From an uncultured Methanosarcinales archaeon (lineage in GTDB: Archaea; Nanobdellota; Nanobdellia; Woesearchaeales; ARS49), in NCBI GenBank assembly GCA_964572035.1, contig CAZNDX010000005.1, positions 1 to 56,570 on the forward strand: DNA of 56,570 nucleotides. The letters run 5' to 3'. How positions within the stretch are numbered: the stretch's first letter is position 1; every line of letters starts with the position of its first letter. Below are positions 25,275 to 46,733 of this stretch, piece by piece. The translations under genes and the position numbers were made by a program. The notes beneath the pieces were generated by a model. That model was not told the DNA's origin. It searched no databases and worked only from the letters and a program-made list of their open reading frames with translations.

Positions 25275-26054
25275 TTATAGAGTAGGGCTTGTTTGGCTTG
25301 TTTTTTCCATTTTTATTGTGAAACATATTCTTTGGTGGAATGTTGTTCCAAAGAATTCTTGTGTCGATATCGGTATTATAAGGTTGTAGAAGTTGGGGGT
25401 TGCTGTTTCGTTTATTGCCCATCCATAAATGTCGGTGAAAACTTTGCTGCATTCTGCGGGGTTTTGATTTTTGTCGCAGATTTTCGTTATTGTTCCTATT
25501 GTGTCTGCCCAGCTTTCATATTCGCGTAGTTTGTTTGCTCTGTCAATTTCAACTACAGGTCTGTAACTGAATTGTCCAACATCGTCAACGAAGTTTATCG
25601 TTATTTGTTTTTTCGAGCTGACTAGTATGTCTGTTCCATCAACTCCCAGTAAAAAGTCTGTTTCTATTGGCTCGAATCCTTCATCTTGTCCAAGGTATGA
25701 GAGGTATGGTTTTAGGTAATAGTTGAATCTGTTTGTTAGCTCTGGTTCGAATGTTTCAGGCAGTCGGGGCGCTGTGCATTCTTGTGGGTTGGGTTCTTCT
25801 GTTTGTGAGCTTGTTATTTTCGCGTTTAATACGTCAAGCAAAGCGCTGTCAAACGCTTCTTTGCTGGCTGTTTTCAAATATGATTCAAAGAACTTCATTT
25901 CGTTGTTTGTGTTTAATATTTTTGTCTGGTGTTCTCCCAGTGTTGAGACTTGGTTGAATTTTGTTTGTACTTGGATGAATATTATGACTAGTCCTATTAT
26001 TACAACAAGCAATAGAAGCGCGGCGTAATCAATTCCTTTTTTGTTCAAACGCAC
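25275..26054 (-). CDS. Pilin-like protein, class III signal peptide (KKG|IDY)
   Basis: Basic leader, G cleavage site, 20-aa hydrophobic helix and soluble domain with Cys. The start may be TTG 26048, overlapping the upstream TGA. Confidence 0.7.
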   Translation of the reverse strand: MRLNKKGIDYAALLLLVVIIGLVIIFIQVQTKFNQVSTLGEHQTKILNTNNEMKFFESYLKTASKEAFDSALLDVLNAKITSSQTEEPNPQECTAPRLPETFEPELTNRFNYYLKPYLSYLGQDEGFEPIETDFLLGVDGTDILVSSKKQITINFVDDVGQFSYRPVVEIDRANKLREYESWADTIGTITKICDKNQNPAECSKVFTDIYGWAINETATPNFYNLIIPISTQEFFGTTFHQRICFTIKMEKTSQTSPTL

Positions 26055-26512
26055 ACCTCTGAGAATAAGTATATTTTTTGTGGAGGTAATGGTATGTATC
26101 TTCCTTCGTTATATGTTGATTGGGCTGTGTAAAAGTATGTGTTGAAGTTTTTGTTGCAGTTTTCTGAGTCCGTTTTGGCTTTTACTTTGAATGTGCAGTC
26201 AACTATTGGTGGTTTTCCTTCTTTTTTATTGCAGTTTGTTACTTCAACAACATCGTATTTTTGTTTTAGAACGTCTGTTAGTTTTTGTTGTATTGATTGT
26301 GGTTCTCCTTCAAAGATTGAGGGGTTTTGGGATATTTGTTCGCTCAGGTATGTTTCCATTGATTGGAATGCAATTTCGCCGTCTATGCTGCTTTGTTGTT
26401 TGGCCGTTCCTGATATTCCCAACCAGATATAAAATATCATTATTAACAATGCTATCGCTAATGATGAAAAAATTAATGATATTGCGTCTACTTCTGCTTT
26501 TTTATTGGTCAT
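26045..26512 (-). CDS. Pilin-like protein, class III signal peptide (KKA|EVD)
   Basis: MTNKKA followed by a hydrophobic helix; three Cys. Start moved from 26536 to 26512. Confidence 0.7.
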   Translation of the reverse strand: MTNKKAEVDAISLIFSSLAIALLIMIFYIWLGISGTAKQQSSIDGEIAFQSMETYLSEQISQNPSIFEGEPQSIQQKLTDVLKQKYDVVEVTNCNKKEGKPPIVDCTFKVKAKTDSENCNKNFNTYFYTAQSTYNEGRYIPLPPQKIYLFSEVCV

Positions 26513-26945
26513 ATCGTGGCGCGTATATTTGGTCAACGTATATTGTTGGATAGCTTGTTCCTGAGACGTAAAAGAGACCTTGATAATTTTTGTAACCGAC
26601 TCCTGCTAATGGTCTCGCGTCTTCATAGTATTGTTTATTGATGTACAATGTTTCTCCTGCTTCTATTTTTACTCCAAAGTCTTTCTTCTGTGGTGTCGAG
26701 TAAGCTATCGCTTGTTTTGGATCGAAGTAGGGTTGTCCTTCTTGATATCCTAGAGTTGGTGATGTTGGCGTTAAACTATTCAATATTCTTTGTTGCATTA
26801 TTGTAGCGTCAAGATTGGTTGGTTGTACTGATGAGTTTAGAACTGATGTTGGTACGACAATTAAAGCAACTATTACAACTAATGTTAAGGGTATGTAAAA
26901 GAACCATCCTATCAAATCCCAATCAGCAAACGCTTTTTTGTTCAC
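26502..26945 (-). CDS. Pilin-like protein, class III signal peptide (KKA|FAD)
   Basis: MNKKA followed by a hydrophobic helix. GTGA overlap with the upstream gene. Confidence 0.65.
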   Translation of the reverse strand: MNKKAFADWDLIGWFFYIPLTLVVIVALIVVPTSVLNSSVQPTNLDATIMQQRILNSLTPTSPTLGYQEGQPYFDPKQAIAYSTPQKKDFGVKIEAGETLYINKQYYEDARPLAGVGYKNYQGLFYVSGTSYPTIYVDQIYAPRYDQ

Positions 26946-27790
26946 GTGCTGCCTCCCGGAATTACTACTTTTTGTATCGCGTCGTAAAACACCAGTTCAA
27001 GTCCTGGTAATAGTTCTGGTTGTTGTAGTTGTATGTATATTGCGGGCGCTTCTGTTGACGTTATTTGTTTTGTCGCGTCGTTAAACGCTAGTATTGACGT
27101 TATTGGCACAATTGAATAGCCATCAAATAATATTCTGTTTTCTCTTAGTTTTTTCGAGAAATGGCAGGCTAGATTGTTGGCATATTCTTTGTTGTTTGTG
27201 TAAATTATTAGTTGTGCTGGTCCTTTTTTGATTTCCGCGAATATTAATGGTGTCGGTCCTGTGAGCTGTATTGTTTGTTCTGTTTTCAGTTGCGTTCTGT
27301 CAACAAGATTCGCGTTAATTATAGGTAATTCTTCTTCGCAGATTATGACTGGCTCATTTTTTGGTATGTTGCTTATTTTATCCGTCATCCCAATTTGATT
27401 TTCAACTCTATAGAATAATAATGAAGTTCCCGGCTCGAAATTTCCGTAATTATTCACATATTTGTTATCTTGTGTGTAATAGAATTTGTTTCCTTCTGGC
27501 GCATCTTTTGTATATGCGGTTACTGTGTGTGGCTCGATCTTGAAACCAATGTTTTCAGGCGTCAAATAAATATAATAAAGATTCGCGTCTTTTCGAACTG
27601 AATATATGCTGTCTATCAACAATGCGGCGTCAGCGGCGTAATATTTTTGTTCATATGTCGTGTCCGAGCCTATTTTTGTTGCCGCGTTGAGTATTGTTAG
27701 CCCGACTATTCCTAAAGCTACGATTGTAATGAATAGTGGAGAAGTCATTAAGTCTATGACATTTCCTTTTTTAGCTGAGAGTAATTTCAT
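26942..27790 (-). CDS. Pilin-like protein, class III signal peptide (KKG|NVI)
   Basis: SAKKG followed by a hydrophobic helix and a 240-aa soluble domain. Confidence 0.65.
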   Translation of the reverse strand: MKLLSAKKGNVIDLMTSPLFITIVALGIVGLTILNAATKIGSDTTYEQKYYAADAALLIDSIYSVRKDANLYYIYLTPENIGFKIEPHTVTAYTKDAPEGNKFYYTQDNKYVNNYGNFEPGTSLLFYRVENQIGMTDKISNIPKNEPVIICEEELPIINANLVDRTQLKTEQTIQLTGPTPLIFAEIKKGPAQLIIYTNNKEYANNLACHFSKKLRENRILFDGYSIVPITSILAFNDATKQITSTEAPAIYIQLQQPELLPGLELVFYDAIQKVVIPGGST

Positions 27791-28247
27791 TGCAGTTGCG
27801 CGTTATTGTTACTGATGTTGGCGAGCTTCTTACAAGTGGATATGATTGCGTTACGCATACTGTTCCGCAGGTTGAACCGCAGGTGTTTTTTATTTCTGGG
27901 TATACGTTACAAATTGGTGTGTCTTGTCCTTCTGGCATAATGCATATGCAAGCATTTTTACGGCACTCCGCCGGTGAAGTTTCAGAAGAGTATACTATCA
28001 TGTTCAAATTTGAGTCTCTTTGTACAGGAACTGTGATTGATATTGGAACTCCAGGGTATGGCGCTTCAAGTAGTGCTTTGAATTCTGAATTTATTCTTTC
28101 AAAGTCTTCTATTTCTGGTGTTGTTTCTTTCGCGATAAAAGAGTTAACAAGCATTACGAAAACGGCGAATACCACAACTCCAACAATTACCCCTAAAACA
28201 ACTTTTACCAGCATCTCCATTGAGAACGCCGCTTGCCCCTTTTTCAT
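27771..28247 (-). CDS. Pilin-like protein, class III signal peptide (KKG|QAAFSME), Cys-rich C-terminus
   Basis: +1 Gln, hydrophobic helix, 8 Cys. Own TATA box TTTATAAA at 28270-28277. Confidence 0.8.
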   Translation of the reverse strand: MKKGQAAFSMEMLVKVVLGVIVGVVVFAVFVMLVNSFIAKETTPEIEDFERINSEFKALLEAPYPGVPISITVPVQRDSNLNMIVYSSETSPAECRKNACICIMPEGQDTPICNVYPEIKNTCGSTCGTVCVTQSYPLVRSSPTSVTITRNCNEITLS

Positions 28248-28280
28248 AGAAGAATATAGAGAAAGTTTGTTTATAAAGGT

Positions 28281-28580
28281 TTATGCCGTTTCACAGCATA
28301 TCTGCCCTGAGCCGCAGTCCTGCCATTTCCCTTGTGTAGAGAATACTTCCCTTCCATTAGCTTTTGCACATTGGTCAACTGTCGCGCAACTTCTGCCCAA
28401 TATCAAATTGGCGCATTTTGTTGGGTTTAGGTCTGTTTGATTTGCTATGCCTGTGTATCCTTGCGCTCCTTTTGTTACTTGTTGTCTTACAACCAATATT
28501 AGAATTATTAGCACCGCAAGTCCTAATACGACCATTACGACCGTTCCTATGGCAAATTCAGCTCCTTTTTTGTTTTTCAT
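28281..28580 (-). CDS. Short pilin-like protein (KKG|AEF), C-terminal GQICC
   Basis: Class III leader, hydrophobic helix, 6 Cys. Own TATA-like box at ~28604-28611. Confidence 0.8.
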   Translation of the reverse strand: MKNKKGAEFAIGTVVMVVLGLAVLIILILVVRQQVTKGAQGYTGIANQTDLNPTKCANLILGRSCATVDQCAKANGREVFSTQGKWQDCGSGQICCETA

Positions 28581-28613: not shown

Positions 28614-29240
28614 TTACTCGCAATCAAAAGGTAAGTTGCGAGCCATGTACAAATCATCTGTATCATCCAAAGTTCCCGTGTCACGTCCGCTGTCCAAGTC
28701 TGCGCAGATGAGATAAGTAATTCCGACATCTACAGTTCCGCTCTCTGTTGGGTCCTCATCGTACAAATCTTCCCATCCTGATTTAAGTCCAGCAATCACC
28801 AAATCTCTGTATGATTGAGCGTATCCTATGCTATTTTCTGGATTTTCCTTAATGATATTAACTACCTCTTTTATTGGAATATCGGTGCTTGAATCAGATA
28901 ATGAGGTTACTTCTATTTTTTCGCATTCAAAGTTTTCCGCTCCTTTTTCATTGTTTTGCGCTCTCATTCTGCTGTAACAACTTACAAGTTTTCTAGCTAT
29001 TGATAATTTAACAGAATCCGGTGTTCCTGATAATTCGTTTACAGGCAATTCGAGTTTTCCGGTACCAGCAGGAGTGCCTGTTGTGTATGTCGTGTCCGGT
29101 TTTACTGGTTTAAATGGTCCAACTTCAAATTGTTTAGTTACATAATCTTTCAGTGGAACTCCAAACACCAGTAGAACTATTATTATGAATATTATTCCAA
29201 GCGCGATTGCGAGCATTGGTGTGCTTATTCCTTTTTTCAT
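28614..29240 (-). CDS. Pilin-like protein, class III signal peptide (KKG|IST)
   Basis: Class III leader. IARKLVSCY resembles the IA..M/L.SC segment of the two upstream paralogs. Confidence 0.72.
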   Translation of the reverse strand: MKKGISTPMLAIALGIIFIIIVLLVFGVPLKDYVTKQFEVGPFKPVKPDTTYTTGTPAGTGKLELPVNELSGTPDSVKLSIARKLVSCYSRMRAQNNEKGAENFECEKIEVTSLSDSSTDIPIKEVVNIIKENPENSIGYAQSYRDLVIAGLKSGWEDLYDEDPTESGTVDVGITYLICADLDSGRDTGTLDDTDDLYMARNLPFDCE

Positions 29241-30212
29241 TTAGTCACCTATTATTGTGTGGCATTTTACTGGGACTCTCCACAAATAATTTGTGCCAAC
29301 TGTGAATAAAACAAATGGTGCGCCTATTGGTCCAAAAGCCAAAGAGCCCAATATTGCCTCGGCGTCTGTATTCGTGTACGAACCTATATAGTCTGCATAT
29401 CCGTATTGACTATTCATGTTTTCTTGTGTAGCTAGAAAATTTTTTGCGACAACTGATTCGCCAAGTTTGCTGGTTAGTTTAGAGTAGGGTGCTAAAAGAA
29501 CTGAGCCTTGCCCATTTGTATCTGCTACGAACATAACTGTAAGTGGGTCTTTTGTGGTTACGTAAGATCTGTACAAGTTTGTTTTCGCAAAATCGTCTTT
29601 GTCATCTTTTCGTAAATAATCATAAAACGTTCTTTCCTGAACAACATTTTGTTCAAGCCATGGTTTGATTGGAAAGCTTGGAATTGTTGATACATAATCG
29701 TCAAACGAGTATCTGTTGCATAATATGCATAAGTAGTCTTCGCCAAGTGTTCCTAGCGCTCCTCCGACAGCGCCTTTAACCCCAGATACAGAACCTAAGT
29801 CAAGCTGTCCTCTCCATCCTCGGTCATAGCAGCTTTTCATATCATTGGCAATCATATTCGCCAAAGCCCATTTATCTTTTCCTTCTTGTGTGTCTGTGAA
29901 TTCTTTTGCCGCGTCAGAATTTGGCGGGTATTTTGATATCGCTTGTGATGCTAAAGCAGTGTACCTTGCCAAATCATTTTGCGTTATTGTCTTTCTTGTT
30001 GTTTTGCATTCCACTGGCATTTCCTTGCCGAATCCAAACGTTACTGATTCTGCGGTTTTGCTGAGCAATAAGTTGAATTGGCATTGTGATTGTTCTCCTG
30101 AAGAGTACAATATCTCAATTAATTGTGGCATTACCGTAATTAACAGAATAACCAAAGTCGCGACTACCGCGATTACTCCTACTAGTATTCCTGGTGTTAA
30201 TCCCTTTTTCAT
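29241..30212 (-). CDS. Large pilin-like protein (KKG|LTP), paralog of 30340-31227
   Basis: Class III leader, KWALANMIANDMKSCYDRGWRGQLDL, and PWLEQNVVQERTFYDYL. Confidence 0.75.
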   Translation of the reverse strand: MKKGLTPGILVGVIAVVATLVILLITVMPQLIEILYSSGEQSQCQFNLLLSKTAESVTFGFGKEMPVECKTTRKTITQNDLARYTALASQAISKYPPNSDAAKEFTDTQEGKDKWALANMIANDMKSCYDRGWRGQLDLGSVSGVKGAVGGALGTLGEDYLCILCNRYSFDDYVSTIPSFPIKPWLEQNVVQERTFYDYLRKDDKDDFAKTNLYRSYVTTKDPLTVMFVADTNGQGSVLLAPYSKLTSKLGESVVAKNFLATQENMNSQYGYADYIGSYTNTDAEAILGSLAFGPIGAPFVLFTVGTNYLWRVPVKCHTIIGD

Positions 30213-30343
30213 CCGAATGGTAGTAGTTGTTCAGCACCTGTTCTTCCTGACTTGACTGCTAGCCAAATCAGAAATATAAGGGCGAATAGTCCTAATATTA
30301 GCGCTACAATGTACGCCCATCCCGGCAGTTCTTGTGCTTTCAT
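30209..30343 (-). CDS. Micro-pilin, 44 aa, not in the ORF track (MKA|QELPGWAYIVALILGLFALIFLIWLAVKSGRTGAEQLLPFG)
   Basis: ATGA overlaps at both ends, class III leader with +1 Gln, and one hydrophobic helix. Confidence 0.8.
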   Translation of the reverse strand: MKAQELPGWAYIVALILGLFALIFLIWLAVKSGRTGAEQLLPFG

Positions 30344-31227
30344 ACTTCACCTATGATTTTTCCGCAGATCTTTCCTGTTTCTGGTCTTTCTGTTATTAAT
30401 TCTTTTAATGGTTGCGCTGTTGCGAACGCGCCTCCGTCTTTGAATATTACGAGCATTACTGATGTTGGTTGGTTTGTGTCAACGTACGGTGAGCTGACGA
30501 AAACTCTGGTGCTAATTGATTTTATCAAAGTGTCGTCAACGTTCGGAATTCGTAGGAACGCGCTGAGCGTCGCTTTTGGTCCGTATATTTTTACTGATTG
30601 CCAAAAGTCAACATCAAACAACGCGGAAGAAAGATAATCGTAATATGTTCTTCCCCCAATAATATTGTTTTCAAGCCAAGGATACAATTCCATTTGTATG
30701 TTCATGTTTTTTACATCTTCAGTGTATTCTATTCTTGAACAGTATAGACAGAGGGCTCCGGATGGAGGATAAAAATCAAGAAGACCTGTTTGTTCCAAAT
30801 CCAGTTGTCCTTCCCATCCTTTTTTATTGCACGAAACCAGTTCGTCCGCGACTATTTTGCTTAGCGCCCATTTTCTTTGCCCTAATGCATCATTTTGATA
30901 TTCCGTAATTAATGGCGAGTTTTGTTGCAAATAAAGTTTAGTTGATTGTTCCGCAAGAGGCATTAATCTGTTTATTGCGTTTTCATCAACTTTTACTTTT
31001 TTAACTTCACAATTTACCGGAACATCTCCGTATCCGAATGATACCTTTTTTACAAGAGAGCGCAATAATAATTCTGAACTGCACTCCGCTGACCCTTCCG
31101 CGCCCCCTTCAGTTGCTCCTCTCCATTGTGGATACAATATTATGAGAAATATCACCGCGGTTGCCAGTAAGGATATCATTATCACCAGCGCTTCCGGCCC
31201 CATCCCCTTTTTGGAGGTTCTTTTCAC
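30340..31227 (-). CDS. Large pilin-like protein (KKG|MGPE), paralog of 29241-30212
   Basis: GTG start overlapping the upstream TGA, KWALSKIVADELVSCNKKGWEGQLDL, and PWLENNIIGGRTYYDYL. Confidence 0.75.
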   Translation of the reverse strand: MKRTSKKGMGPEALVIMISLLATAVIFLIILYPQWRGATEGGAEGSAECSSELLLRSLVKKVSFGYGDVPVNCEVKKVKVDENAINRLMPLAEQSTKLYLQQNSPLITEYQNDALGQRKWALSKIVADELVSCNKKGWEGQLDLEQTGLLDFYPPSGALCLYCSRIEYTEDVKNMNIQMELYPWLENNIIGGRTYYDYLSSALFDVDFWQSVKIYGPKATLSAFLRIPNVDDTLIKSISTRVFVSSPYVDTNQPTSVMLVIFKDGGAFATAQPLKELITERPETGKICGKIIGEV

Positions 31228-31337
31228 GGTAGCACCTTTGTGTTAAGAATGTACAAAACCGTAATGAATATCACAAGGCATAGAACAAGAACTATAGCGT
31301 ATTCCATAAAATGGCTTTCCGCTTCACCTTTTTTCAT
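31224..31337 (-). CDS. Micro-pilin, 37 aa, not in the ORF track (MKKG|EAESHFMEYAIVLVLCLVIFITVLYILNTKVLP)
   Basis: Class III leader plus hydrophobic helix. GTGA overlap with the next gene. TTTTTAAT box ~22 nt upstream. Confidence 0.78.
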   Translation of the reverse strand: MKKGEAESHFMEYAIVLVLCLVIFITVLYILNTKVLP

Positions 31338-31369: not shown

Positions 31370-31627
31370 TTATGCCCTTCTGCAACAGATTTGCCCGGCT
31401 CCTACGTCTTTGAAACTACCGTACAAGACATCGCAGTCTGTTCCTATTGGTTTAATTTCGTTTTCTGGCGCGCAGGTTCCTTCGCTGACGTTTCTGAGCC
31501 CCGCTCCAAATAGGTTGGTTCTTTGTTGCACCATAACGATTAGTATTATCAAAACAATAAGCCCTAGGGCGATAATAATTATGGTGTTAATCTGGAGCCC
31601 TTGTCCTTTTATGTTGTTATGCAGCAT
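31370..31627 (-). CDS. Short pilin-like protein (IKG|QGLQINTII), C-terminal GQICC
   Basis: +1 Gln and hydrophobic helix. Start set to ATG 31627 after GGAG; exact start uncertain. Confidence 0.8.
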   Translation of the reverse strand: MLHNNIKGQGLQINTIIIIALGLIVLIILIVMVQQRTNLFGAGLRNVSEGTCAPENEIKPIGTDCDVLYGSFKDVGAGQICCRRA

Positions 31628-31911
31628 TGGTCGCATCTCCATGCGGATGGGTCGGCTCCTGTTGGCATGTTTTGTGGTATGTATCCTCTGCCTAGGTTGC
31701 GCTCAAATTCTGGATTGCACGTATTCGCGCTGTAGTATCCTTCTCCGCCTGTTGGAACGTCTGCTTTGTAGCATCTTCCTGGGCAGGCGTTTGCTGCCGT
31801 GCTAAACTTGCCTATTTGTCCTGAGAATATCGCTGCGAGTACTACTAATACTAGTATTCCTAGCGCGGCGATGATAATTGTGCTGATTGGTAATCCTTGT
31901 GCTCGTTTCAT
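31609..31911 (-). CDS. Short pilin-like protein (KRA|QGLPISTII), C-terminal CDQCC
   Basis: +1 Gln, hydrophobic helix, 6 Cys. SD GAGGTG and TTTAAATA box at ~31951-31958. Confidence 0.82.
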   Translation of the reverse strand: MKRAQGLPISTIIIAALGILVLVVLAAIFSGQIGKFSTAANACPGRCYKADVPTGGEGYYSANTCNPEFERNLGRGYIPQNMPTGADPSAWRCDQCCITT

Positions 31912-34103: not shown

Positions 34104-34126
34104 CTTACTACTGCTCAGCAACAACA

Positions 34127-34134
34127 TTTATATA
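34127..34134. promoter_or_regulatory. Bidirectional TATA box between the kinase and PhoU genes
   Basis: TTTATATA lies 23 nt from ATG 34103 (minus) and 24 nt from ATG 34159 (plus). Confidence 0.65.
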
Positions 34135-37609: not shown

Positions 37610-40600
37610 GCCCGTATCGTTTTAGTTCTTGTTCGAATTCTTTTTTGTGTTCTTCGTAATATTCTGCGGTAATTTTGAGTTTTCTGAACAATTCTTCTAT
37701 TTCTTTTTTAGTTAGGGCTCCTTCATGCAATAACTTAAGTTTTTCAAGGAGTTCTTTTCTTTCTTGCCTGCCTGTTTCCTCAAGTATTGCGTGTAATCTT
37801 TCTATTGGGTCTTTTGATGTTTCTTTTTTGGCGAGTTTTCGCAATCTTTCGAGCGCCGCTTCGAATTTTTTGGGTGGTATTGGTTTTTTCTTGATTTGTT
37901 TTTCAAGGTCTATCCAGTCTTTTTCCTCGAGGTCTTCTTTTTTAGCGAAGGTTCTTAGTTTGTCTAATTCTTCTGTTTTTGTGTATTCTGGTTGTTCTTT
38001 TCTTTGCGCTTTTGTTTCTTCTTTTGGTTTTGGCAAGTGTTGGTAGAGTAAGTATGCTCCTATTCCAACTCCTGCTATGGCGAACAATATCATTAATACT
38101 TTGAGGGCTCCGAGTATTATGCTTGGCGGGTGGCTTTTTGGATTGAGCGGGTCTGTTCCTTCTTCAACTTCTTTTCCGTCGTTCCATCTGTCTTTGTCCG
38201 TGTCTCGCAGGGCAGGGTTTGTGCGGAGGTCGTATTCTTGTTTGTTTGTTAGTCCGTCTTTGTCAAAGTCTGTTCCTTCGGCCGCTTCCGCGCAGTCTAT
38301 GCATCCGAAGTGGTCTAGTCTCCATTTGTCGTCTATTGTGTCTCCGAGGCTGAAGGTTTGTGATAGTCCGCATCCTTTTTCATCAACTTGTTCCCCTACT
38401 GGTGTTCCGAGGCACGCGTCGAATGGGTCGTATATTCCGTCGTAGTCTTCGTCGCCTACTGGTTTATCTGTGCAAATGTTGAATTGTATGTCGCACTTTA
38501 GTCCGTCCGCGCAGTCTTCGTTGACTTCACAGGCGCTCTTTGCCGGGCATAGAGTTGGGCACGCTCTTCCGCAATCCACTCCTGCTTCTCCGACATCGAG
38601 TTGTCCGTTGCTGCAGTGGCTTGCGTCTTCGCAAACTTTGCTGTCGTATCCGCAATATCCTGTTTCACAGTCGGAGTGTAATATGCATTCTTGTCCTTGC
38701 GTGCAGGCGCTGCAGGTTGTTCCTCCGCAGTCTACGTCTGTTTCGAATCCGTTTTTAACTTCGTCATCGCACACCGCTAGTGTGCATACGTCGTTTACAC
38801 AGCTGTTTGTTTCGCAGTCGCCGTCAACAACGCACGCTTTTCCTATCGCGCAGGATGAGCATTCGCTTCCGCCGCAGTCTTCGTCTGTTTCGTTTCCGTC
38901 AACATCCCCGTTAACGCAGGCGGCCGGTTCAAGTGTTACGTCTATTGTAACTCCGTCGCTTTCCATCTCCTCGCTGATGAGTCCTACTTTGTTTACCGCC
39001 TTTACTTTGAAAATGTACGTGCGCCCGTTGACCAAATTGAGTGGTCCGCCGTCGTTTCGTGTTCTTATGTAAGTGTAATTTCCGTCTGTTACGTTGCTGA
39101 CTAGATTACTGACAATCAATTGTCTGTTGTTTCTGTCTTGTATTGTAACAAGGTAATGGTCTATTGATGACTCTAAATCGTTTCCTTTGAATGCTGCTCG
39201 TAGTTTTGTTTTGCTCCACGATAGTTCTGGGTCTTCAAATGGTCCGTCGTCGAGCACGTATTCCATTGTTGGTGGTGTTGTATCTACCAGTACTGGTATT
39301 GTTATTGGTCCGACTTTTTCTTGTGTGCTTGGCTGCACGCAGGATACGAAGTATGTGTGTTCTCCTTCTCCTGCGACCTGTATTGGTTGCCATTGAACGT
39401 AATCTGCCGAGCAAGACCCCATGCACGTGCTTTGGTCGTCTTCTTGTGTTCCAAAGTAGCAGAATGTTCTTTTGTTTGACGCGACTCCTATTGTTACGTT
39501 TGTCGTGCTGAATCCTCTTGGTGTTACGCTTGTTATGTTGAGGTCCAAGCTGAGGTCCACAACGACGTCAAATTCAGCGGGCTCAGAGACTAGTTGGTTT
39601 GTCGCTTTGCAGGATATGTAGTATCTGTATGTTCTTTCTTCTGTTACGTTGATTTGTGCGCTGTGTGTTGTTTTTGGTACTAAATCATATCCCGGGAACT
39701 GTCCTGTCATTTGTGAGAATTGTGATGTTGTTGTGCTGTATTTGCAGAATCCTGGTTTGTCAAGTTCTACTTTCATTGTTGTGACGTACAGGTCTTTGTC
39801 CGGGAGATATTTCTCGGCAATGATTGGTGGCTCTGCTATTACGCGTTTGATTACGGGCGGTTCCGTATCGAGTGTTATGGTGAATGTTTTTTGGTTTATT
39901 CCCCAGTTTGTTCTGCAGTACGCGTGCAGTTGCGCGCTTTCTACTCCGCTTGGTATTGTTAGTTGTTGTGATGTGTGTTTGTTTCCTGCGTCGGTGAATT
40001 TTTGGAATAGGTCGAAATCGCTTGCGTTTGGCGCTGTTGGCGTATTGTATATGTATGCGCATTCCGCTGGCAGTTCTGTTTCTATTTCGGCGATGAATTG
40101 TGAGGTGTTTGCAGAGCCGAATGGAGGCACGGTCATTCGCATGTCTGGGGCTCTTGTTGCCATGTAGAATTGTGTTCTTGCTTCTATTGGCAAATTGTTG
40201 TAGCCTCGTGCGTAAACGTGTATTGCGTTTGTTCCTCCGCTTATGTTTCCTACGCGCGCTTTGTAGTTTATTTTATCCGTGCTGGTCAGGACTGGTTTTA
40301 TGCTTCGTGGTGTTTCAAGTATTGAGAAGTCTAAGTATCTCATTGATATTACGTCAGCTACATCGAGTTGTACAGGTTTGCTGAAAGTTAGATTGACATC
40401 AATCTGAGAAGTGTTTAGTATCGCGTTCGCGGGTTGTATTGTTACTGTTGGCGCGACATTGTCTACGATTAGCGTGTATGTTGGTCCAGGTGGTGTGAAG
40501 AATATGTTTTTGTCATTTTTGCCGTTGAAACCGAATGTATACGTTCCTAATGTTAGAGTTGGAGCGGCAAATGTGTGGCTTAGTTGCATTCCTGATGTTT

Positions 40601-42626
40601 GTTGCGTGAATGATGGGTTTCCTGGCCCCTGCAATTGAAGGAATGTTATTTCTGTTGGCACGTCAAAAGTTACAGTTATTACCGGTGAGAAACTGCTTGT
40701 GTATATTGTGTTGTTTAGCGCTGCCCCGTCTGTTATTGTCAAGTTCAATATTTGTGGTCCGTTGCACGCTGCGCAGGCGAAGAATGTTACTGTTTTCACA
40801 ACTTCAATGTTGTTGTGGTTGTCTCTGCTGTAATAGTATAGCGTGTTTGTTCCTTCTGGCAGTGTTGTAAGTGTTGTTTGTCCTTGTTTTAGCTGTCTGT
40901 TGCTGATTATTAGTTCGTTTGCGCTGACTTGTATTGGGTATGTTTTTGCGTTGTTGCAGTTTGTTGTGGTGTTTTGTACGCAGAGGTATGTTGTGAAGTT
41001 TGGCTGTCCTGCGTAGTCTTGTGTTGCTCCGCTTGTTGTTTGTTGGTCGAATATTTTGATGATGAGTTTGTCTATTTTTCCTGCGATTCCTGTTGGTATT
41101 ATTGTGGTTTCTGGTGGGAAATAATCGCGCTCGCAGGTGTAATCTCCCGCTGGGCAGTCTTTGAATGGGTCTCCTGTTGTTCCGTCGGCGTTTTTGACGC
41201 ATCCTGCGGTGTCTGACCATTGGCATACTCCGATTCCGCATTGGTCTGAGCTGGTTACAACGACTGAATTGTCCGTTCCAAGTTGCACTCCTCCTGAAGG
41301 TGAGCCACATTGCATTTGTGTGTAATCTGCGCACGATACTTGTTCGCAGGTTTTCGCTTGTTTCAAGTTTCTGTCAAAGAAGCAGGGGTTGTCTTGTGTG
41401 CTTAGCGCTTCGCTTTTTTGTTCTGTGCACGCGTCCCATATTGTGCTGGTTACTTGTGTTGTTTCTACTCCTGTTGTTCCGTTTTTGGCGCAGAATATGC
41501 AGTTGCTTGCCTGTTGGTCGATGCATACTCCTATCCCCAAATCAGCAAACACGCTGTTCCATTGGCAGTCTCCTGCGTTGCAATTGTCTCGTTGGCACGC
41601 TCCTTGTGTTTTGTAGTCGGCGCACGCCATTTGTTGTTTGCACGCGTAGCATTTGTTTGTTGGTCCTAGGCTTTTGTCAAAGAAGCAATAAGAGTTTGTT
41701 TCGCAGGTTGAGGATGATGAGTATAGTCCGAATGGGTCGCCTGTATCGCATGCTGTGGGGCTTACGCATTTTGGTCCTTGTTCATCGGCGACGCAGTATT
41801 CTCCTGTTGTGCACGCGACTCCTGCGCTTGTTAGCTTGTTTTGCGCGTTGCATTGGTATGCCTTATTCAACTTGCCTGCGAATACGCTGTTTACTGTTCC
41901 GGTGAATTGCGTGTTGAATCCGCTGCCGCTTATTCCACCGTATCCAAACGTTGTCAGATACGTTCGATATTTTTCATAATAACTTGAGCTGATGCAGAAC
42001 GCGTTGCTTGATTGTTGGTAGCATTCTATGTCTCCAGCGTTTCCTGTTGCTGTTGTGTTTGCGCTGTTTCCTGCAAGTTGGTAGTATGCTGATATCGCGT
42101 AAGTGTAGTCGACGTTGAATTCGAGGTTTGCGTCGTTGTCAATGAATTGCCCTGTTGGTTGTCCTTGTGTTATTGTTTGTGTTGGCGTGCAGGATGTTCC
42201 TTTGCATCGGTATATTGTGACGTAGTCTGGTGTGCATGCGGTTGTATAAGTTAGCAGGAGTGATTTTTGCGCGCGAACTGGTGAAACGGAAAGTGTTGGT
42301 GCCGGCGCGTAATTGGGGCTTCCGCATCCTGATATTACCGCGCAGTCTTGGGCGCAGTTTGTTGCTGTTTCTCCTGTTTCGCAGATGTTGTTTCCGCAAA
42401 CCGGCTGGCTTGGCTGATATCCTTGCGCTCCGCAGAATTGTGAGCAGGTTTGTGATGAGTTTGTTGGGACGCCAAATATGTATGTTGCTGGACAGCTTGA
42501 TTGTGGCATGAAGCTTCCGTTTTTCGTGACTGGGTCGCAGCAGCATCCGACGGATTGCGCGCTGACTATTGCTGAAAGCGCCAGTGTTAATGCGATGCAT
42601 ATTCCTATTGTTATTGCGGTGCGCAT
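37596..42626 (-). CDS. Giant Cys-rich single-pass surface protein (1676 aa), putative adhesin
   Basis: Sec signal (IVSA|Q), Cys-rich modules, several Ig/FN3-like repeats (DTEPP, DTTPP, DNVAP), three E(T/A)(D/G)xDCG repeats, Ca-binding DxDxDG repeats, C-terminal TM and charged cytoplasmic tail. Confidence 0.85.
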   Translation of the reverse strand: MRTAITIGICIALTLALSAIVSAQSVGCCCDPVTKNGSFMPQSSCPATYIFGVPTNSSQTCSQFCGAQGYQPSQPVCGNNICETGETATNCAQDCAVISGCGSPNYAPAPTLSVSPVRAQKSLLLTYTTACTPDYVTIYRCKGTSCTPTQTITQGQPTGQFIDNDANLEFNVDYTYAISAYYQLAGNSANTTATGNAGDIECYQQSSNAFCISSSYYEKYRTYLTTFGYGGISGSGFNTQFTGTVNSVFAGKLNKAYQCNAQNKLTSAGVACTTGEYCVADEQGPKCVSPTACDTGDPFGLYSSSSTCETNSYCFFDKSLGPTNKCYACKQQMACADYKTQGACQRDNCNAGDCQWNSVFADLGIGVCIDQQASNCIFCAKNGTTGVETTQVTSTIWDACTEQKSEALSTQDNPCFFDRNLKQAKTCEQVSCADYTQMQCGSPSGGVQLGTDNSVVVTSSDQCGIGVCQWSDTAGCVKNADGTTGDPFKDCPAGDYTCERDYFPPETTIIPTGIAGKIDKLIIKIFDQQTTSGATQDYAGQPNFTTYLCVQNTTTNCNNAKTYPIQVSANELIISNRQLKQGQTTLTTLPEGTNTLYYYSRDNHNNIEVVKTVTFFACAACNGPQILNLTITDGAALNNTIYTSSFSPVITVTFDVPTEITFLQLQGPGNPSFTQQTSGMQLSHTFAAPTLTLGTYTFGFNGKNDKNIFFTPPGPTYTLIVDNVAPTVTIQPANAILNTSQIDVNLTFSKPVQLDVADVISMRYLDFSILETPRSIKPVLTSTDKINYKARVGNISGGTNAIHVYARGYNNLPIEARTQFYMATRAPDMRMTVPPFGSANTSQFIAEIETELPAECAYIYNTPTAPNASDFDLFQKFTDAGNKHTSQQLTIPSGVESAQLHAYCRTNWGINQKTFTITLDTEPPVIKRVIAEPPIIAEKYLPDKDLYVTTMKVELDKPGFCKYSTTTSQFSQMTGQFPGYDLVPKTTHSAQINVTEERTYRYYISCKATNQLVSEPAEFDVVVDLSLDLNITSVTPRGFSTTNVTIGVASNKRTFCYFGTQEDDQSTCMGSCSADYVQWQPIQVAGEGEHTYFVSCVQPSTQEKVGPITIPVLVDTTPPTMEYVLDDGPFEDPELSWSKTKLRAAFKGNDLESSIDHYLVTIQDRNNRQLIVSNLVSNVTDGNYTYIRTRNDGGPLNLVNGRTYIFKVKAVNKVGLISEEMESDGVTIDVTLEPAACVNGDVDGNETDEDCGGSECSSCAIGKACVVDGDCETNSCVNDVCTLAVCDDEVKNGFETDVDCGGTTCSACTQGQECILHSDCETGYCGYDSKVCEDASHCSNGQLDVGEAGVDCGRACPTLCPAKSACEVNEDCADGLKCDIQFNICTDKPVGDEDYDGIYDPFDACLGTPVGEQVDEKGCGLSQTFSLGDTIDDKWRLDHFGCIDCAEAAEGTDFDKDGLTNKQEYDLRTNPALRDTDKDRWNDGKEVEEGTDPLNPKSHPPSIILGALKVLMILFAIAGVGIGAYLLYQHLPKPKEETKAQRKEQPEYTKTEELDKLRTFAKKEDLEEKDWIDLEKQIKKKPIPPKKFEAALERLRKLAKKETSKDPIERLHAILEETGRQERKELLEKLKLLHEGALTKKEIEELFRKLKITAEYYEEHKKEFEQELKRYGHGKK

Positions 42627-43789
42627 AGTGTTACGGTTAGTGTGATTTGTTGGTAGTCCGCGCTTTTTGCTGGATGCGTGTCGTGCGCGTAAATTTGGAC
42701 TATTTTTTGTGGTATATCGTTTGCGCTTATTTCAATGGCTTGCGCGTCGTTTATGCTGAATGTTGTTGTGTCGTTGTCTGGATCGTTTGCTTTGAGTTGT
42801 ATTGTTGTGAAGGATTCGCACGGCTGTTGCGCCGATAGCTGGTTTCCGCTTATTCGTAGCGTTGTTGTTCCGCTTGGCGGAACGTAAATTGTGTCTGCGT
42901 TTTCTATAAACCATAGAGCTGGCGCTCTGTTTTGTCGTTTTATCGTGAAAGAATAAGGTATTCCTTGGACTGTGCTTGTTGTGTCTGTTAAGATTATGTT
43001 GCTTCCTTTTTCTGTTGTTTTTGTTTCAATTACAAATGGCAGTTGTGTTGTTGGTTCGTATGTTATGTCTGTTACGTCTGCGTCGGCGTACTCTTTTGCG
43101 GTGTAATACATTGTTCCTAATCTCACTGGCAGTCTTGCGCTGAACTTTTCGAATTGTGCTGTGTTTCCGTCCAAGTTTGTTGCTTTAATGTTCCAATTTA
43201 GCTCAATTGTTAGTGCTTGTTCTGTTTTCAATTGCTCGATATTTTGCGCAAAAATTAGAGTAACTGCTGGTTCTCCTGCAATTATTTCGTATAAATCGAA
43301 TTGCGCGAAGTTTGTGCATTCCGGTAGTTTGGTTTCAATGTAGTGTTCTAAATTCTCGCTGACTGATGTTTGACCTTGTGAAGGATTTAATGGCGGCAAG
43401 TTATTGATGCCATAGTATCCTTCAAATGTTGTTTCTCCTCCTCTAAATGGATAGGTTTGGAATGGATACTCTGGCGGTGTGCTGTAAAAGAATGTTCCTA
43501 CGTTTCCGACTGGCGGAGTGATTGTGATGCTTGTTTCTTGGAGGCTATCAGATGTGAGTCCTCCTTGGTTTTCAAAGATGTGTCCTCCCTGCTTTCCGAG
43601 TAAAATTAATCCTTCTTCTGTTGTTTGTCTTAAGCAGGATGTCACTGTTTCTTCTATTTCTTCTGCACTGATGGTTTTCGCTGTTGCCAGTTCTTTTTTT
43701 ACCGTTCCTGCGACGTATATCGCGATTCCTAAAGAAACAACTATCAATAATCCGATGATGATGAAAATAGTTATTTGCCCGCGTTTCAT
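42611..43789 (-). CDS. Large pilin-like protein (KRG|QITIFIIIG)
   Basis: Class III leader, +1 Gln, hydrophobic helix, and a C-terminal Ig/cadherin-like segment (NRAP...ANDPDNDTTTF). Confidence 0.8.
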   Translation of the reverse strand: MKRGQITIFIIIGLLIVVSLGIAIYVAGTVKKELATAKTISAEEIEETVTSCLRQTTEEGLILLGKQGGHIFENQGGLTSDSLQETSITITPPVGNVGTFFYSTPPEYPFQTYPFRGGETTFEGYYGINNLPPLNPSQGQTSVSENLEHYIETKLPECTNFAQFDLYEIIAGEPAVTLIFAQNIEQLKTEQALTIELNWNIKATNLDGNTAQFEKFSARLPVRLGTMYYTAKEYADADVTDITYEPTTQLPFVIETKTTEKGSNIILTDTTSTVQGIPYSFTIKRQNRAPALWFIENADTIYVPPSGTTTLRISGNQLSAQQPCESFTTIQLKANDPDNDTTTFSINDAQAIEISANDIPQKIVQIYAHDTHPAKSADYQQITLTVTLCAPQ

Positions 43790-44892
43790 GGAATCACCCG
43801 CAGGCGTGTTGTTTGGTTCCAGTTTTGTACGAGTCCTGATGGTCCTGTTTGGAAGTATTGTGATACGGTCAGAATTTCATTTGTTGTTTGTTTGCAGTTT
43901 GCGTTTCCTCCGTATGGTACGAATAGATTGTTGCATATGTTTGAGAACAATGGAATGTTGGTTATGTGCCATCCTGCGAATTCTTTTTGCGCTGCTCCCC
44001 ATGGTCCTACTTTGAATGTGTAGAATTGTTTGTTTCCATTTTTGGCGACGTAAACTTGTTTATAGTTTGGCGTGTTATTGAATAGTTCGTAATTAAACAG
44101 CGAGCTTGTTGCGTCGTGTACTTCTGTAAATACGTAGTTGTTGAGTTGGTTGTATGACGCGCTTAGAATATTTTTGGCCGTGGCTGTTGCTTGAGGTATT
44201 GTTGTGACAACTGGTCCGTTGATTATGCTTTGCGTGTCGTGGTTGTACCATATGTTGTTTCCGCATAGGTCGTAGTCGTTGTCAAAGTTTTTGGCGCTGT
44301 TGCAGTATGACGTTGGCTGATTTAATGCTTTTAGTATGCTTTTGTCCGCTCCATCAACCGGGTAGTTCAGGCTTGTTCCTACGATTGTGTTTGTGCCGTA
44401 ATGAAGTACGCATACGTTGTTTATGCACGGGCGTGATACTGTTGTGCTCATTGGGCAGCTTCCGATTACGAGTGGAGCGACTTGTCCGTATGTCGTTGTG
44501 TATTGATATCTGTTTAGAACTTCCTGCGGTTTGTCGCAATACAAGGCAAAGTCTGAAGGAGTTTGCGATAACCCAATTGTCAGCATTGTTTCTGCGAGCA
44601 GTTTTGTTCGCGATGCCCATTTTCCTAGGTCGCAGTAATCGTCAAGCAAATATTGGCCGCTCATTATGCATTTTGGTTTGTCGTTGTTTGTTTGTCCTGT
44701 CCAATATCTGTCTGGGAAATTGTCATTGGCAGGATTGCAGCTTGGACAGATGAGGCATTGGTTCGCTGTCGCGCAAAAATTTCCTTGTTCTGGAATAAAA
44801 TTTGGAGTGTGTCTTACGTCTACTTGTACCCAGCTTGCCGCGTAGGCTGAAGTTGCTAAAAGTAGGAGGAGGAAAATTGTTTTTATGGGCAT
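43786..44892 (-). CDS. Cys-rich secreted protein (~368 aa)
   Basis: Sec signal MPIKTIFLLLLLATSAYA. Start moved from 45009, which lies inside the upstream gene. Confidence 0.78.
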   Translation of the reverse strand: MPIKTIFLLLLLATSAYAASWVQVDVRHTPNFIPEQGNFCATANQCLICPSCNPANDNFPDRYWTGQTNNDKPKCIMSGQYLLDDYCDLGKWASRTKLLAETMLTIGLSQTPSDFALYCDKPQEVLNRYQYTTTYGQVAPLVIGSCPMSTTVSRPCINNVCVLHYGTNTIVGTSLNYPVDGADKSILKALNQPTSYCNSAKNFDNDYDLCGNNIWYNHDTQSIINGPVVTTIPQATATAKNILSASYNQLNNYVFTEVHDATSSLFNYELFNNTPNYKQVYVAKNGNKQFYTFKVGPWGAAQKEFAGWHITNIPLFSNICNNLFVPYGGNANCKQTTNEILTVSQYFQTGPSGLVQNWNQTTRLRVIP

Positions 44893-46733
44893 CTGTATCC
44901 TTTTCCTCCAAAGCTTACGAAGTGTCCTGACGCTCTGCATTGGTTGCCGTCCCAGCACATGTTTGTTGGACAGCATCCAGTTTGAATTTGTGAGGATGTT
45001 GGCATCCATCCTGTTTGTTCAACTACGCTTGTCTGCGTAAATTCTACGAATTGCCAGGTTCCTTGGGGTGTGCAGATTGCGTTCTTGTCCGCGCCAGTTG
45101 GTTTTACGTTTAGTAATGGCGTTCCGCAAAATCCTCTTTCGTTAATTTGAACTCCTGGGAAGTCTGCTATTGTTGTTGTTCCTGTGTATCCTATTGTTCT
45201 TTGTTCATTGCAGAAATAATATGCTCCGTTGTGAATTAGTATATCTTGTTCTATTCCTGTTACGCTTCCTTGTGATATGACTTGGTTGTTTACGCATACC
45301 CCTGTTCCGCTTGGATCATTATAATTTTTGAGTGGGTCGTCTGGTTCTCCGCAGCATTTTGTTCCTGTCCAGCTAAATCCCGCCGCTGTGCATCCTAATT
45401 CATCTCCATCTAATGATTTTGTGAGCGCTCCTGTGCTTTTGCAATAATATGCTTCATTGTTTATGTCGACTCGCGTTCCTGTTGTTTTGGTGTATTGTGA
45501 TGGCGAGTATGGACTGCTTCCTCCGCATTCTCGTAATTGTGGTCCTTCGCACCAATAGGTGTGTCCCGCGATGTCTGTTGTTCCCTGTAATTGATTGACC
45601 GTTATTCCTGCTGTGTTTTGCGTGTTTCCGCACGTCAGGAATCCTGTTGTTGTCGCGACGACTTGCGTCATTGCTCCGCAACTTGTAAAGTCAGTAATAA
45701 CTCCTGGGTCTAGTTGTCCTGCCCATACCCAATTGGTTCCGCTTTTTCCGCAGATGGCGTTCATTACTCTATTGCCTAATCCGGCGACTGTTCCATAGTA
45801 TTTGCAGTCGCTTGGAGGGCTTTCAGCGTTTGGATTTACGTATGCGTCTCCGCAGCAGACTCCGTTGTACCAGTCGCTTCCCAGGTTCGCGCAAGTTTGC
45901 TCGTGTTGGTAGTCGCAGATTGGGTTTCCTAAGCTGTCAACTGATGTTGAGGGGAATGAGTTTATGCAGGCGATTACTTGTTCTGGAAATGAGGGGTTGT
46001 ATGTGATTTGTGTTTCGCCTGATGATGGGTCATATGATTGGTCTGGTGCGAAGTATGCTGCGACTTTATTGTCGCTGCTTGTTACTTTCAAATCTCCAAG
46101 ATACCCTTGTAGCGAAACAATTCCTGTCAGAGGACCAAGGGTTACCGGTCCTGTTTTGTTTCTGAAAAAGTTGAACGGTTTAACTGCGCTTCCGCTTATT
46201 CCTCCATCCCATCTAACTGTTCTTATTCTGAATGATGGTAGGTTGTTTGTTCCGTGGGTGTAATAATTGTAAGTTATCGATTGAACTGATTTCGCGGGAA
46301 TTACTGGAAAACTAAGTTGTGTGTATGTTCTTTTTTGCGGAACTGGTGAGCCGACCATTTCAAGGAATGTTTTGCATTGTGTCGCGACTATTGGTTCGTT
46401 GTCAAATTGAACGCATAGTTGGTAAGTTCCGCATTGCTCGGGTCCTGGAATCATTGTGCCTGTTCCAGATCCGTCATCCACCATTGGCCTGTAACATTGG
46501 CCTATATTGTCTATTGTTATGTTCAGTTGGGAAATTGTTATTGGTGTTGAGAACAGGTTATTGTCCGTTCGAATTAGTGGGCTTGTCCCGCCCATTGTGT
46601 ATTGAGAGGCTCCTGATGTTGGATAGTTATAGCTTCCGCTTCCGCCAAAAACAGTTATCGTGACTTGTTGCGCGAGAGCGATTCCGCTAAGAATTACTGA
46701 TAGTAATGCCAATACTAGTAATAACCGTTTCAT
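44883..46733 (-). CDS. Cys-rich secreted protein (616 aa), first gene of the 46733-35058 gene string
   Basis: Sec signal MKRLLLVLALLSVILSGIALA, repeated CCG(D/E) and CxxxGxxW modules. SD AGGGG and ATTTAAAA box at ~46770-46777. Confidence 0.82.
   Translation of the reverse strand: MKRLLLVLALLSVILSGIALAQQVTITVFGGSGSYNYPTSGASQYTMGGTSPLIRTDNNLFSTPITISQLNITIDNIGQCYRPMVDDGSGTGTMIPGPEQCGTYQLCVQFDNEPIVATQCKTFLEMVGSPVPQKRTYTQLSFPVIPAKSVQSITYNYYTHGTNNLPSFRIRTVRWDGGISGSAVKPFNFFRNKTGPVTLGPLTGIVSLQGYLGDLKVTSSDNKVAAYFAPDQSYDPSSGETQITYNPSFPEQVIACINSFPSTSVDSLGNPICDYQHEQTCANLGSDWYNGVCCGDAYVNPNAESPPSDCKYYGTVAGLGNRVMNAICGKSGTNWVWAGQLDPGVITDFTSCGAMTQVVATTTGFLTCGNTQNTAGITVNQLQGTTDIAGHTYWCEGPQLRECGGSSPYSPSQYTKTTGTRVDINNEAYYCKSTGALTKSLDGDELGCTAAGFSWTGTKCCGEPDDPLKNYNDPSGTGVCVNNQVISQGSVTGIEQDILIHNGAYYFCNEQRTIGYTGTTTIADFPGVQINERGFCGTPLLNVKPTGADKNAICTPQGTWQFVEFTQTSVVEQTGWMPTSSQIQTGCCPTNMCWDGNQCRASGHFVSFGGKGYRCP

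Follow-up and report, generated by a model that had tools for sequence, protein, structure and literature searches.

Archaeal type IV pilin loci are already known as a kind of system, and it is against the described examples that we place the locus reported here, which occupies positions 25275-46733 of a 56,570-nucleotide stretch of archaeal DNA (the window, about 40% G+C). The locus contains 18 genes whose products start like type IV prepilins (numbered g01-g18), divided between a module A (g13 to g01, 31911 down to 25275) and a module B (46733 down to 35058) that also encodes a giant protein of 1,676 aa. With a probability of about 0.6, we consider that it encodes, in a single supercluster, the subunits and accessory proteins of a type IV filament (TFF) system in a Woesearchaeote, the machinery of which would be encoded elsewhere in the genome. 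The EppA-processed Epd pilus of Methanococcus maripaludis (system 1/clade 1) resembles this locus in its short [KR][GA] leaders with Gln at +1, in its several minor pilins and very small pilins, and in having some pilin genes away from the machinery. It differs in being an 11-gene cluster with an ATPase, two platform genes and its own peptidase, EppA, whereas we find 18 pilin-like genes and no machinery; moreover, the locus proteins have neither Glu at +5 nor a match to DUF361/Class_IIIsignal, and where g13 is predicted to have a small disulfide-rich globular head, the major pilin of Epd has none.

Other described systems are alike in part. The KGIS, KAIS and RALS leaders of Sulfolobus Ups and Aap and of Haloferax PilA1-6 resemble those of g07 (KGIS), g08 (KGLT) and g01 (KGID), but these systems have one to three pilins per locus, and their PilA/arCOG families with a DUF1628-type N-terminus were undetected in the locus proteins. 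Module B, with its four or five unequal pilin-like proteins and one very large extracellular protein, recalls the bacterial minor pilins with PilY1, GspH-K of the type II secretion system and those loci of archaeal clades 1 and 4A that have a PilY-like adhesin; clade 1 loci carry at least five minor pilins and a DUF2341 adhesin (Makarova et al.). In contrast to the PilY1/DUF2341 systems, the giant protein has no match to those domains and has the features of a type I membrane protein with a cytoplasmic tail, and g14-g18 show neither sequence nor fold similarity to known minor pilins. An earlier reading of this DNA, made from the letters and the open reading frames (ORFs) alone (hereafter the original prediction), had called the locus far richer in subunits than any characterised one. 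In terms of whole genomes 18 class III genes are ordinary, since model archaea have 16-47 FlaFind positives per genome (PMC4371748); what is unusual is to find all 18 in one locus.

The evidence that carries our interpretation begins with the leaders. All 18 are basic, 3-14 residues long and end in [KR][GA], and a hydrophobic stretch of about 20 residues, accompanied by no other transmembrane segment, begins at most 10 residues later; the best 19-residue window has a mean Kyte-Doolittle value of 2.3-3.6 and begins 1-8 residues past the site. A FlaFind-like rule that we wrote ourselves is obeyed by 18/18 locus genes and by 7 of the window's 462 other ORFs of at least 35 aa, the seven being a candidate at 54230-55387, two polytopic membrane proteins and four antisense ORFs. 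The 18 co-oriented minus-strand genes of the original prediction were thus recovered in full, as were their sizes (37-392 aa) and the seven cases of Gln at +1 (g05, g09, g12, g13, g14, g15 and g18), while its statement that almost none has Glu at +5 can be sharpened to none (0/18). Among the characterised cleavage sites, those of EpdA (RAQI) and EpdB-E (KGQ[VLI]) correspond to the RAQ, KGQ and RGQ sites of the locus, and that of UpsB (KGIS) to its KGIS site; UpsA has KAIS and AapA/B have RALS (PMC4371748).

The motif is also retained in evolution. Among 372 distinct N-termini of homologues, 335 still carry [KR][GA], Gly and Ala swapping at -1, and Gln at +1 is dominant in the g11-g15, g17 and g18 families. 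In 81 related loci, 693 ORFs on the pilin strand have an N-terminal hydrophobic segment, and in 511 of these (74%) [KR][GA] stands no more than 10 residues before it, with Ala at -1 in 276 cases, Gly in 235 and Gln at +1 in 47%; on the opposite strand the motif precedes such a segment in 42 of 305 (14%). Family by family, the motif is kept in 7/7 homologues of g11 and 11/11 of g05 (both [KR]G), 9/9 of g04, 12/12 of g03 (KKA, RRA and KKG interchanging), 26/26 of g16 and 25/26 of g17 (mostly KAQ); the two distant g18 orthologues both read KAQ, and the g08 family leader is conserved as MK[KR]G[LIQ][TS]P. Gly or Ala directly follows Lys or Arg in 20/29 to 26/26 homologues of the module B families, and likewise in most module A families. 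In both the g13 and the g16 family conservation peaks at the N-terminal helix: in g13 QGLPISTIIIAALG..VL is invariant or nearly so, and in g16 14 of the 35 invariant or near-invariant positions fall within the first 35 residues. Such a pattern is unlike that of a plain signal peptide or a simple membrane anchor and is the one expected of a pilin, because the pilin alpha-1 helix builds the filament core. In addition, 17 of the 18 proteins have an even number of Cys, as would suit extracellular heads held by disulfide bonds. These observations support the assignment of the leaders, made in the original prediction, as class III (prepilin-type) signals that would be cleaved after [KR][GA]. Ordinary Sec signal peptides were considered for the 18 proteins and ruled out, since the helix is their most conserved part and [KR][GA] precedes it.

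It could be objected that some of these genes are artefacts of chance or annotation, as ORFs as short as 37 and 44 aa with no database annotation might suggest. Orthologues, those of the 37-aa and 44-aa ORFs included, keep their order and sequence across many contigs, and antisense and other ORFs carry the motif far less often; synteny and conservation refute this explanation, and we give it practically no weight.

The second line of evidence comes from the family of g13, the first gene of module A (31609-31911, minus strand), which encodes a 100-aa protein with the leader MKRA/QGLPISTIIIAALGILVLVV (here and below, a slash marks the proposed cut), six Cys and a C-terminal CC. We found 70 homologue clusters of g13 at 41-96% identity with a nearly invariant N-terminus, and a profile of the family retrieved at least 3,084 clusters at 50% identity (E<=0.001; 1.84 billion representatives), small proteins with the consensus KKAQGLSxNTIIIAAL..VLVVL..IFTGR.G.F..C.G.C..C..C..CC. 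The same profile scores g12 at E 5.9e-10 (whole-library Z) and g06 at E 1.6e-9, and BLASTP relates g12 to g13 at 1.3e-6. No Pfam or NCBIfam model covers the members in the window, and no Pfam model covers 90 sampled members of the family. As none of the 18 locus proteins or of these 90 matched, standard annotation seems to miss such subunits. A few family members have weak defensin-like matches, probably reflecting Cys spacing only.

Our metagenome scan with the g13 family gave 79 loci, four of which (L070, L071, L073 and L092) are of another kind and matched g13 through the N-terminus only. In L070, L071 and L092 a protein of 550-778 aa matches Pfam T2SSE at 1e-14 to 1e-16. The TadA/FlaI-like ATPases carry a long N-terminal extension (762-778 aa in total), TadA and FlaI being the closest NCBIfam models for that of L070. 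A 319-aa Walker-A fragment in L073 stands in the ATPase position and is probably a fragment of an ATPase (machinery-linked spans L070 1685-6748, L071 1253-7093, L092 12-3725 and L073 178-3396). Downstream (3') of the ATPases lies a gene for a protein of 684-700 aa with 7-8 predicted transmembrane (TM) helices, followed by gene arrays whose products start [KR][GA]QGLP[IL]xT.., more than 12 of them pilin-like in L092. The g13 profile matches these ATPase-linked pilins at E 4.6e-8 to 2.9e-4 (Z = 1.84 billion). Proteins of the L071 locus are recorded in metagenome-assembled genomes (MAGs) named Nanoarchaeota archaeon, and L099/L100, which represent the same locus, likewise contain the T2SSE ATPase, with no A24 peptidase found nearby; nor did a peptidase gene turn up in the flanks of any other locus. 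Judged by these profile matches to pilins beside T2SSE ATPases, g13, g12 and g06 belong to one putative pilin family, members of which are linked on the DNA to TFF ATPases within the broader lineage. The ATPase-linked arrays (L070, L071/L099/L100, L073, L092) thus share the g13-type N-terminus with our locus but differ from it in containing a TadA/FlaI-like ATPase and the 8-TM protein and in being devoid of module B and of the Lrp, APH and AbrB regulators that accompany it. In L099/L100 a toxin/NTP_transf_2 pair also lies between the ATPase and 8-TM genes (8640-9766).

This sequence tie to machinery-linked pilins is limited to the g13 family, and the ATPase-linked loci contain nothing that the g16 profile recognises. 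One might accordingly hold that g13, g12 and g06 alone are pilins and that the other 15 are unrelated secreted or membrane proteins obeying the positive-inside rule in a variable envelope 'island', a picture that the fast divergence of module A and the toxin-antitoxin insertions in other variants would suit. The positive-inside rule, however, does not require the Gly or Ala that is kept after Lys or Arg across the families, the genes share an operon-like array with g13 and g12, to which they are coupled in translation, and the predicted structure of g16 has a continuous 55-residue N-terminal helix like a pilin alpha-1. We therefore regard a restriction to the g13 family as very unlikely.

The structure in question is one of two AlphaFold2 (AF2) models that we built from deep alignments. 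That of g16 (36009-37121, minus strand; 370 aa, MAINKKA/VEMQFHWIFILIAGALIL, module B), with a pLDDT of 91.6 and a pTM of 0.85, shows the helix at residues 6-60, running 53 residues past the proposed cut, and then a large beta-rich and helical head. In the g13 model (pLDDT 80.9) residues 9-40 form a helix, and three short strands make up a small beta head. A long N-terminal helix with a globular head fits pilin architecture in both cases. In the Foldseek comparison, a check named in the original prediction, neither model gave a significant pilin match in the PDB, and the head domains look new.

Module B is dominated by the giant protein (37596-42626, minus strand), which the original prediction had called an adhesin. 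It is indeed a Cys-rich surface protein of 1,676 aa with a Sec signal peptide; its 83 Cys are massed at the N- and C-proximal ends of the ectodomain, the protein has 19 N-glycosylation sequons, and three Cys repeats of about 50 aa are followed by TSP3-like Asp-rich repeats. A TM helix at about 1500-1520 and a Lys/Glu-rich cytoplasmic tail of about 160 residues give it a type I topology. Pfam yielded only sub-threshold fn3 and TSP3 matches and NCBIfam only TSP3-repeat-level ones, with no DUF2341/PilY1 domain and no sequence relative in the PDB. As no adhesin domain, DUF2341/PilY1 or PDB match was found, the adhesin label is unproven, and the membrane anchor would place the protein at the base of or beside the structure, not at a filament tip, unless it is processed. 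The two other secreted Cys-rich proteins of module B match no informative Pfam or NCBIfam family. The three Sec-exported Cys-rich proteins of the original prediction are thus real (83, 14 and 28 Cys); however, all of them lie in the second block (37596-46733) and are not spread over both.

Several results weigh against a filament assembled from these subunits. We read every ORF of at least 110 aa in the window and searched Pfam with the membrane and ATPase candidates, and found no T2SSE/VirB11/TadA ATPase, no TadC/FlaJ/PilC platform and no A24 peptidase, in agreement with the original prediction; nor do the loci of the window type have an ATPase, platform or peptidase in the 10 kb on either side of g13 or g16, and among the contigs, readable for 10 kb on each side of known proteins, none shows a genome carrying both locus and machinery. 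The 8-TM protein of the ATPase-linked loci has no T2SSF/TadC similarity, and PDB and Pfam searches with it were empty; it could be a platform protein of a divergent or new type, a role that its position alone assigns to it. Of the models PF04021 Class_IIIsignal, PF07790 Pilin_N, PF01917 and the NCBIfam archaeal flagellin N-terminus, none matched the locus proteins at Pfam E<=0.1 or NCBIfam E<=1, and DUF361, the family of Epd/EppA-type pilins, had no match among the 18; the sole hints from curated models are sub-threshold Flp1_like matches for g01 and g06 (15-16 bits against a cutoff of 33.5). Foldseek, as said, returned no pilin for g13 or g16, and when PDB sequences were searched with a g13 family profile, nothing but the ErbB2 TM helix came up, a composition match. 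For 15 of the 18 proteins the case consists of leader motif and gene neighbourhood, the C-terminal TM anchor of the giant protein misfits a filament-tip adhesin, and one genome survey states that DPANN genomes are missing type IV pilus components (10.1101/2020.05.14.094862).

These points would suit a membrane-anchored envelope complex around the giant protein (a pseudopilus, a bindosome-like stalk, an S-layer anchor or an attachment plaque) that forms no filament, in which the 18 would be bitopic proteins whose helices stay in the membrane, cleaved or not, and for which a TFF ATPase might be dispensable. Assembly genes are lacking near all of the more than 25 syntenic loci, there is no match to a pilin family or a pilin fold, and the anchor and tail of the giant protein, together with its near-constant length across deep divergence (1,676, 1,687 and 1,674 aa), are what one would expect of a fixed scaffold. 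Non-filament sugar-binding proteins of Sulfolobus also use class III-type leaders (10.64898/2026.04.22.720090). Their bindosome (Bas) resembles our locus in having class III-leader proteins that are not filament subunits of the classical kind and whose genes lie apart from those for the ATPase and platform; it differs in its substrate-binding domains and linked ABC transporter, since Pfam and NCBIfam show no solute-binding domain in the 18 proteins and the ABC genes of the window (7528-10388) are of the ABC-2 type and 15 kb off. The bindosome, moreover, itself needs a TFF ATPase and platform. Against a complex of mere anchors it can be said that [KR][GA] and Gln at +1 are strictly retained and the helix is extremely conserved, which points to a constraint from processing and packing beyond anchoring, and that g13-family genes stand beside TadA/FlaI-type ATPases on other contigs, of which one was matched to Nanoarchaeota MAGs; nor was a substrate-binding or S-layer domain detected. 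Such an envelope complex is the main alternative, possible but doubtful. The bindosome and S-layer variants were weighed in their own right, and no domains supporting them were found.

The separation of subunits from machinery has precedents. Pilin loci apart from ATPase/TadC loci are known in archaea (PMC4858521), the pilA1-6 genes of H. volcanii being a further case (PMC4371748), and TFF systems 1 and 4A have been reported in some DPANN (10.64898/2026.04.22.720090). In a TFF system of this kind, the 18 precursors would insert in the membrane through their N-terminal hydrophobic helix, a PibD/EppA-type peptidase would cut off the basic leader of 3-14 residues after [KR][GA], and the helices would then pack together at the centre of either a filament or a short pseudopilus. 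EppA needs Gln at +1 (PMC4371748, PMC3875500), and the dominance of this residue in most families suggests that the peptidase probably has an EppA-like specificity. The likely major subunit would be g13, with its paralogues g12 and g06, because it is small and Cys-knotted, is the best conserved among those pilin-like proteins for which distant loci allowed a comparison, and comes first behind an Lrp-type regulator. Module B (g14-g18, the giant protein and the two secreted proteins) may form a conserved minor-pilin/accessory complex, like the priming or tip complex of bacterial minor pilins and PilY1, while g01-g08 and g10 would be decorations or alternative subunits, probably setting surface or host specificity.

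The distribution of the locus supports the assignment to a DPANN archaeon made in the original prediction. Homologue searches gave 101 clusters for g16 and 13 for g08 (among 5.8 billion proteins), besides those of g13, and several g16 and g13 homologues are labelled Candidatus Woesearchaeota or Nanoarchaeia; Woesearchaeota are DPANN of the kingdom Nanobdellati. The synteny, which the original prediction proposed to compare, is extensive. The same gene order is found in close relatives (L006-L009) and in the distant contigs L014 (GCA_002762795.1) and L015 (GCA_974447225.1), and more than 25 long loci share the arrangement giant-g17-g16-g15-g14-AbrB-APH-Lrp-g13-g12-...-RPA. In 84 related loci, the Lrp gene is present in 51, g12 in 46, AbrB in 33 (every long syntenic locus), g14 in 32, g15 in 29, g06 in 20 and g09 in 17, the g09 homologues of these 17 loci being 41-98% identical. 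The g08 family gave only spurious cyanobacterial matches in 185,579 GTDB species-representative genomes, where the pattern scan may have missed relatives or the close lineage may be unrepresented.

Comparison of the window with L006, L008 and L009 reveals two evolutionary tempos. The flanking DNA is 80-91% identical, so these contigs come from related species. RPA, YdjM, RadA, S2 and the 90-aa ORF beside RadA are 92-98% identical, TRAM 78-92% and LigT 78-83%, and g12-g17 with the giant protein fall at 78-96%. By contrast, g01-g08 and g10 are mostly at 34-85%, with g07 at 34-84%, g02 at 37-62% and g01 at 40-58%; g10 reaches 95% in L009, and the mini-protein g11 is 89-100% conserved in L006 and L009. 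At greater distance, the giant protein has orthologues of 1,687 aa in L014 (46%) and 1,674 aa in L015 (38%), g14 drops from 94-95% in the close relatives to 35-42% in both, g18 has orthologues of 419 aa (L014) and 443 aa (L015), and the 616-aa secreted protein has one in L014. This split in identity between the modules points to module B with g13 and g12 as a conserved core and to module A past g12 (g01-g08 and g10) as a fast-diverging cassette. In other variants, pairs of ParE-toxin and NTP_transf_2 (nucleotidyltransferase) genes are inserted within module A (L096 5934-6364 and 7826-8810, L097, L098).

Between the modules lie three further genes. The Lrp/AsnC-family transcription regulator (31961-32422, minus strand; Pfam HTH_24 at 1.2e-11 and AsnC_trans_reg) is directly upstream of g13. 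It is preceded by the gene for a cytoplasmic APH/protein-kinase-like protein of 546 aa (32487-34127, minus strand; Pfam APH at 2.6e-5), which is 25-27% identical to the same-position gene in L006, L008 and L009 with no nucleotide similarity, and which looks like a replaced or hyper-divergent gene within the locus; nowhere in the window is the GC content lower than in this region (34%). The third gene (34159-35061, plus strand) encodes a 300-aa regulator with an AbrB/SpoVT-type (MazE_antitoxin) N-terminal domain (PF04014 at 3.5e-8) and is convergent with g14.

Members of the DPANN are thought to live attached to other cells, by means that are largely unknown. The locus provides candidates for three roles: g13 for the major pilin, other proteins for a conserved complex of accessory components, and a third set for surface subunits that vary between species. 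They would be type IV pilus-like subunits in archaea that have often been described as lacking these pili. The conserved synteny of the locus beside the RPA gene is a marker by which the apparatus can be traced across Woesearchaeota. It is tempting to go further and to imagine an undescribed, Woesearchaeota-wide organelle in which pilin-like subunits are permanently coupled to the transmembrane protein of about 1,680 residues as a signalling machine for host contact or attachment, with the variable pilin cassette and the hyper-divergent kinase-like gene setting partner specificity and with a distant TFF motor, or no conventional one, for its assembly, but we judge this unlikely. The literature searched contained no described system matching the locus gene for gene, in agreement with the original prediction, nor did it describe the protein families, the two-module design with its anchored protein of about 1,680 aa, the Lrp, kinase-like and AbrB genes set within the locus, the cassette that diverges fast or the lineage-wide synteny.

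Within 25275-46733 the long ORFs are all on the minus strand except one, and inside each module neighbouring genes either share 4-35 nt or have no more than 33 nt between them. Upstream of g13 and of the 616-aa gene lie TATA-like boxes and GGTG-type ribosome-binding sites, and together with the gene spacing they suggest two operons. For three genes the orthologues indicate that the start codon is probably later than that of the longest ORF: g02 would start at 26512 (MTNKKA..; its orthologues begin MTNKKA or MNNKA), g12 at 31627 (MLHNNIKG..) and the 407-aa ORF of module B at 44892 (MPIKTIF..), where an internal Met precedes a typical Sec signal peptide, MPIKTIFLLLLLATSAYA/AS, and the orthologues have 373 aa.

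All genes of module A are on the minus strand. After g13 comes its paralogue g12 (31370-31642; 90 aa, probably 85; ..IKG/QGLQINTIIII), then the helix-only mini-protein g11 (31224-31337; 37 aa, MKKG/EAESHF..), g10 (30340-31227; 295 aa, ..SKKG/MGPEALVIMISLL) and a second helix-only mini-protein, g09 (30209-30343; 44 aa, MKA/QELPGWAYIVALILGLFALIFLIW). The paralogue of g10 is g08 (29241-30212; 323 aa, MKKG/LTPGILVGVIAVV; 33% identity, BLASTP 1.6e-33), which has a conserved Cys and a C-terminal KCxTIIGD motif. It is followed by the fast-diverging g07 (28614-29240; 208 aa, MKKG/ISTPMLAIALG), by the g13-family member g06 (28281-28580; 99 aa, ..KKG/AEFAIGTVVMVVLG, C-terminus ..QICCETA) and by g05 with its eight Cys (27771-28247; 158 aa, MKKG/QAAFSMEMLVKVVLG). 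The module continues with g04 (26942-27790; 282 aa, ..AKKG/NVIDLMTSPLFITIVALG), g03 (26502-26945; 147 aa, MNKKA/FADWDLIGWFFYIPLTLVVIV) and g02 (26045-26536; 163 aa, probably 155; MTNKKA/EVDAISLIFSSLAIALLIM) and ends with g01 (25275-26054; 259 aa, MRLNKKG/IDYAALLLLVVIIG).

Module B, also on the minus strand, opens with the 616-aa secreted protein (44883-46733; 28 Cys, signal peptide MKRLLLVLALLSVILSGIALA/QQ), which is followed by the second secreted Cys-rich protein (43786-45009; 14 Cys, about 368 aa from the probable start) and by g18 (42611-43789; 392 aa, MKRG/QITIFIIIGLLIVVSLG). Beyond the giant protein come g17 (37112-37609; 165 aa, MAKNKA/EMIGQVFIFILAGLIFVLI), g16, g15 (35536-36012; 158 aa, MMRG/QVKMFETIGVLVVFFVLLF) and g14 (35058-35549; 163 aa, MFMRKG/QMEIFGLVIIVILLALG).

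The remainder of the window encodes RFC, ValRS, CysRS, two RadA-family proteins, RPA, ribosomal protein S2, the alpha and beta subunits of PheRS, Pelota and TrmB, and tRNA and Rfam scans of the window gave no match. Outside the locus, a 385-aa protein (54230-55387, plus strand) begins MRRKA/QAASGAATLIGIILVLFIF, a nineteenth class III-like leader; 3' of it (including L002 2729-5703) are genes for a 519-aa polytopic protein and two lipoprotein-like proteins, and neither it nor these neighbours have a significant Pfam match. The sequence beyond the right end of the window (L002) encodes more envelope proteins and no machinery. On the other side, 7 kb from the pilin locus, a minus-strand cluster at 10947-17991 encodes three GT-C-like polytopic proteins, one of them with a Pfam match (PMT_2), and two N-terminally anchored proteins, one of them with weak sub-threshold thioredoxin-like matches; it is probably a cluster for protein glycosylation or envelope maturation.

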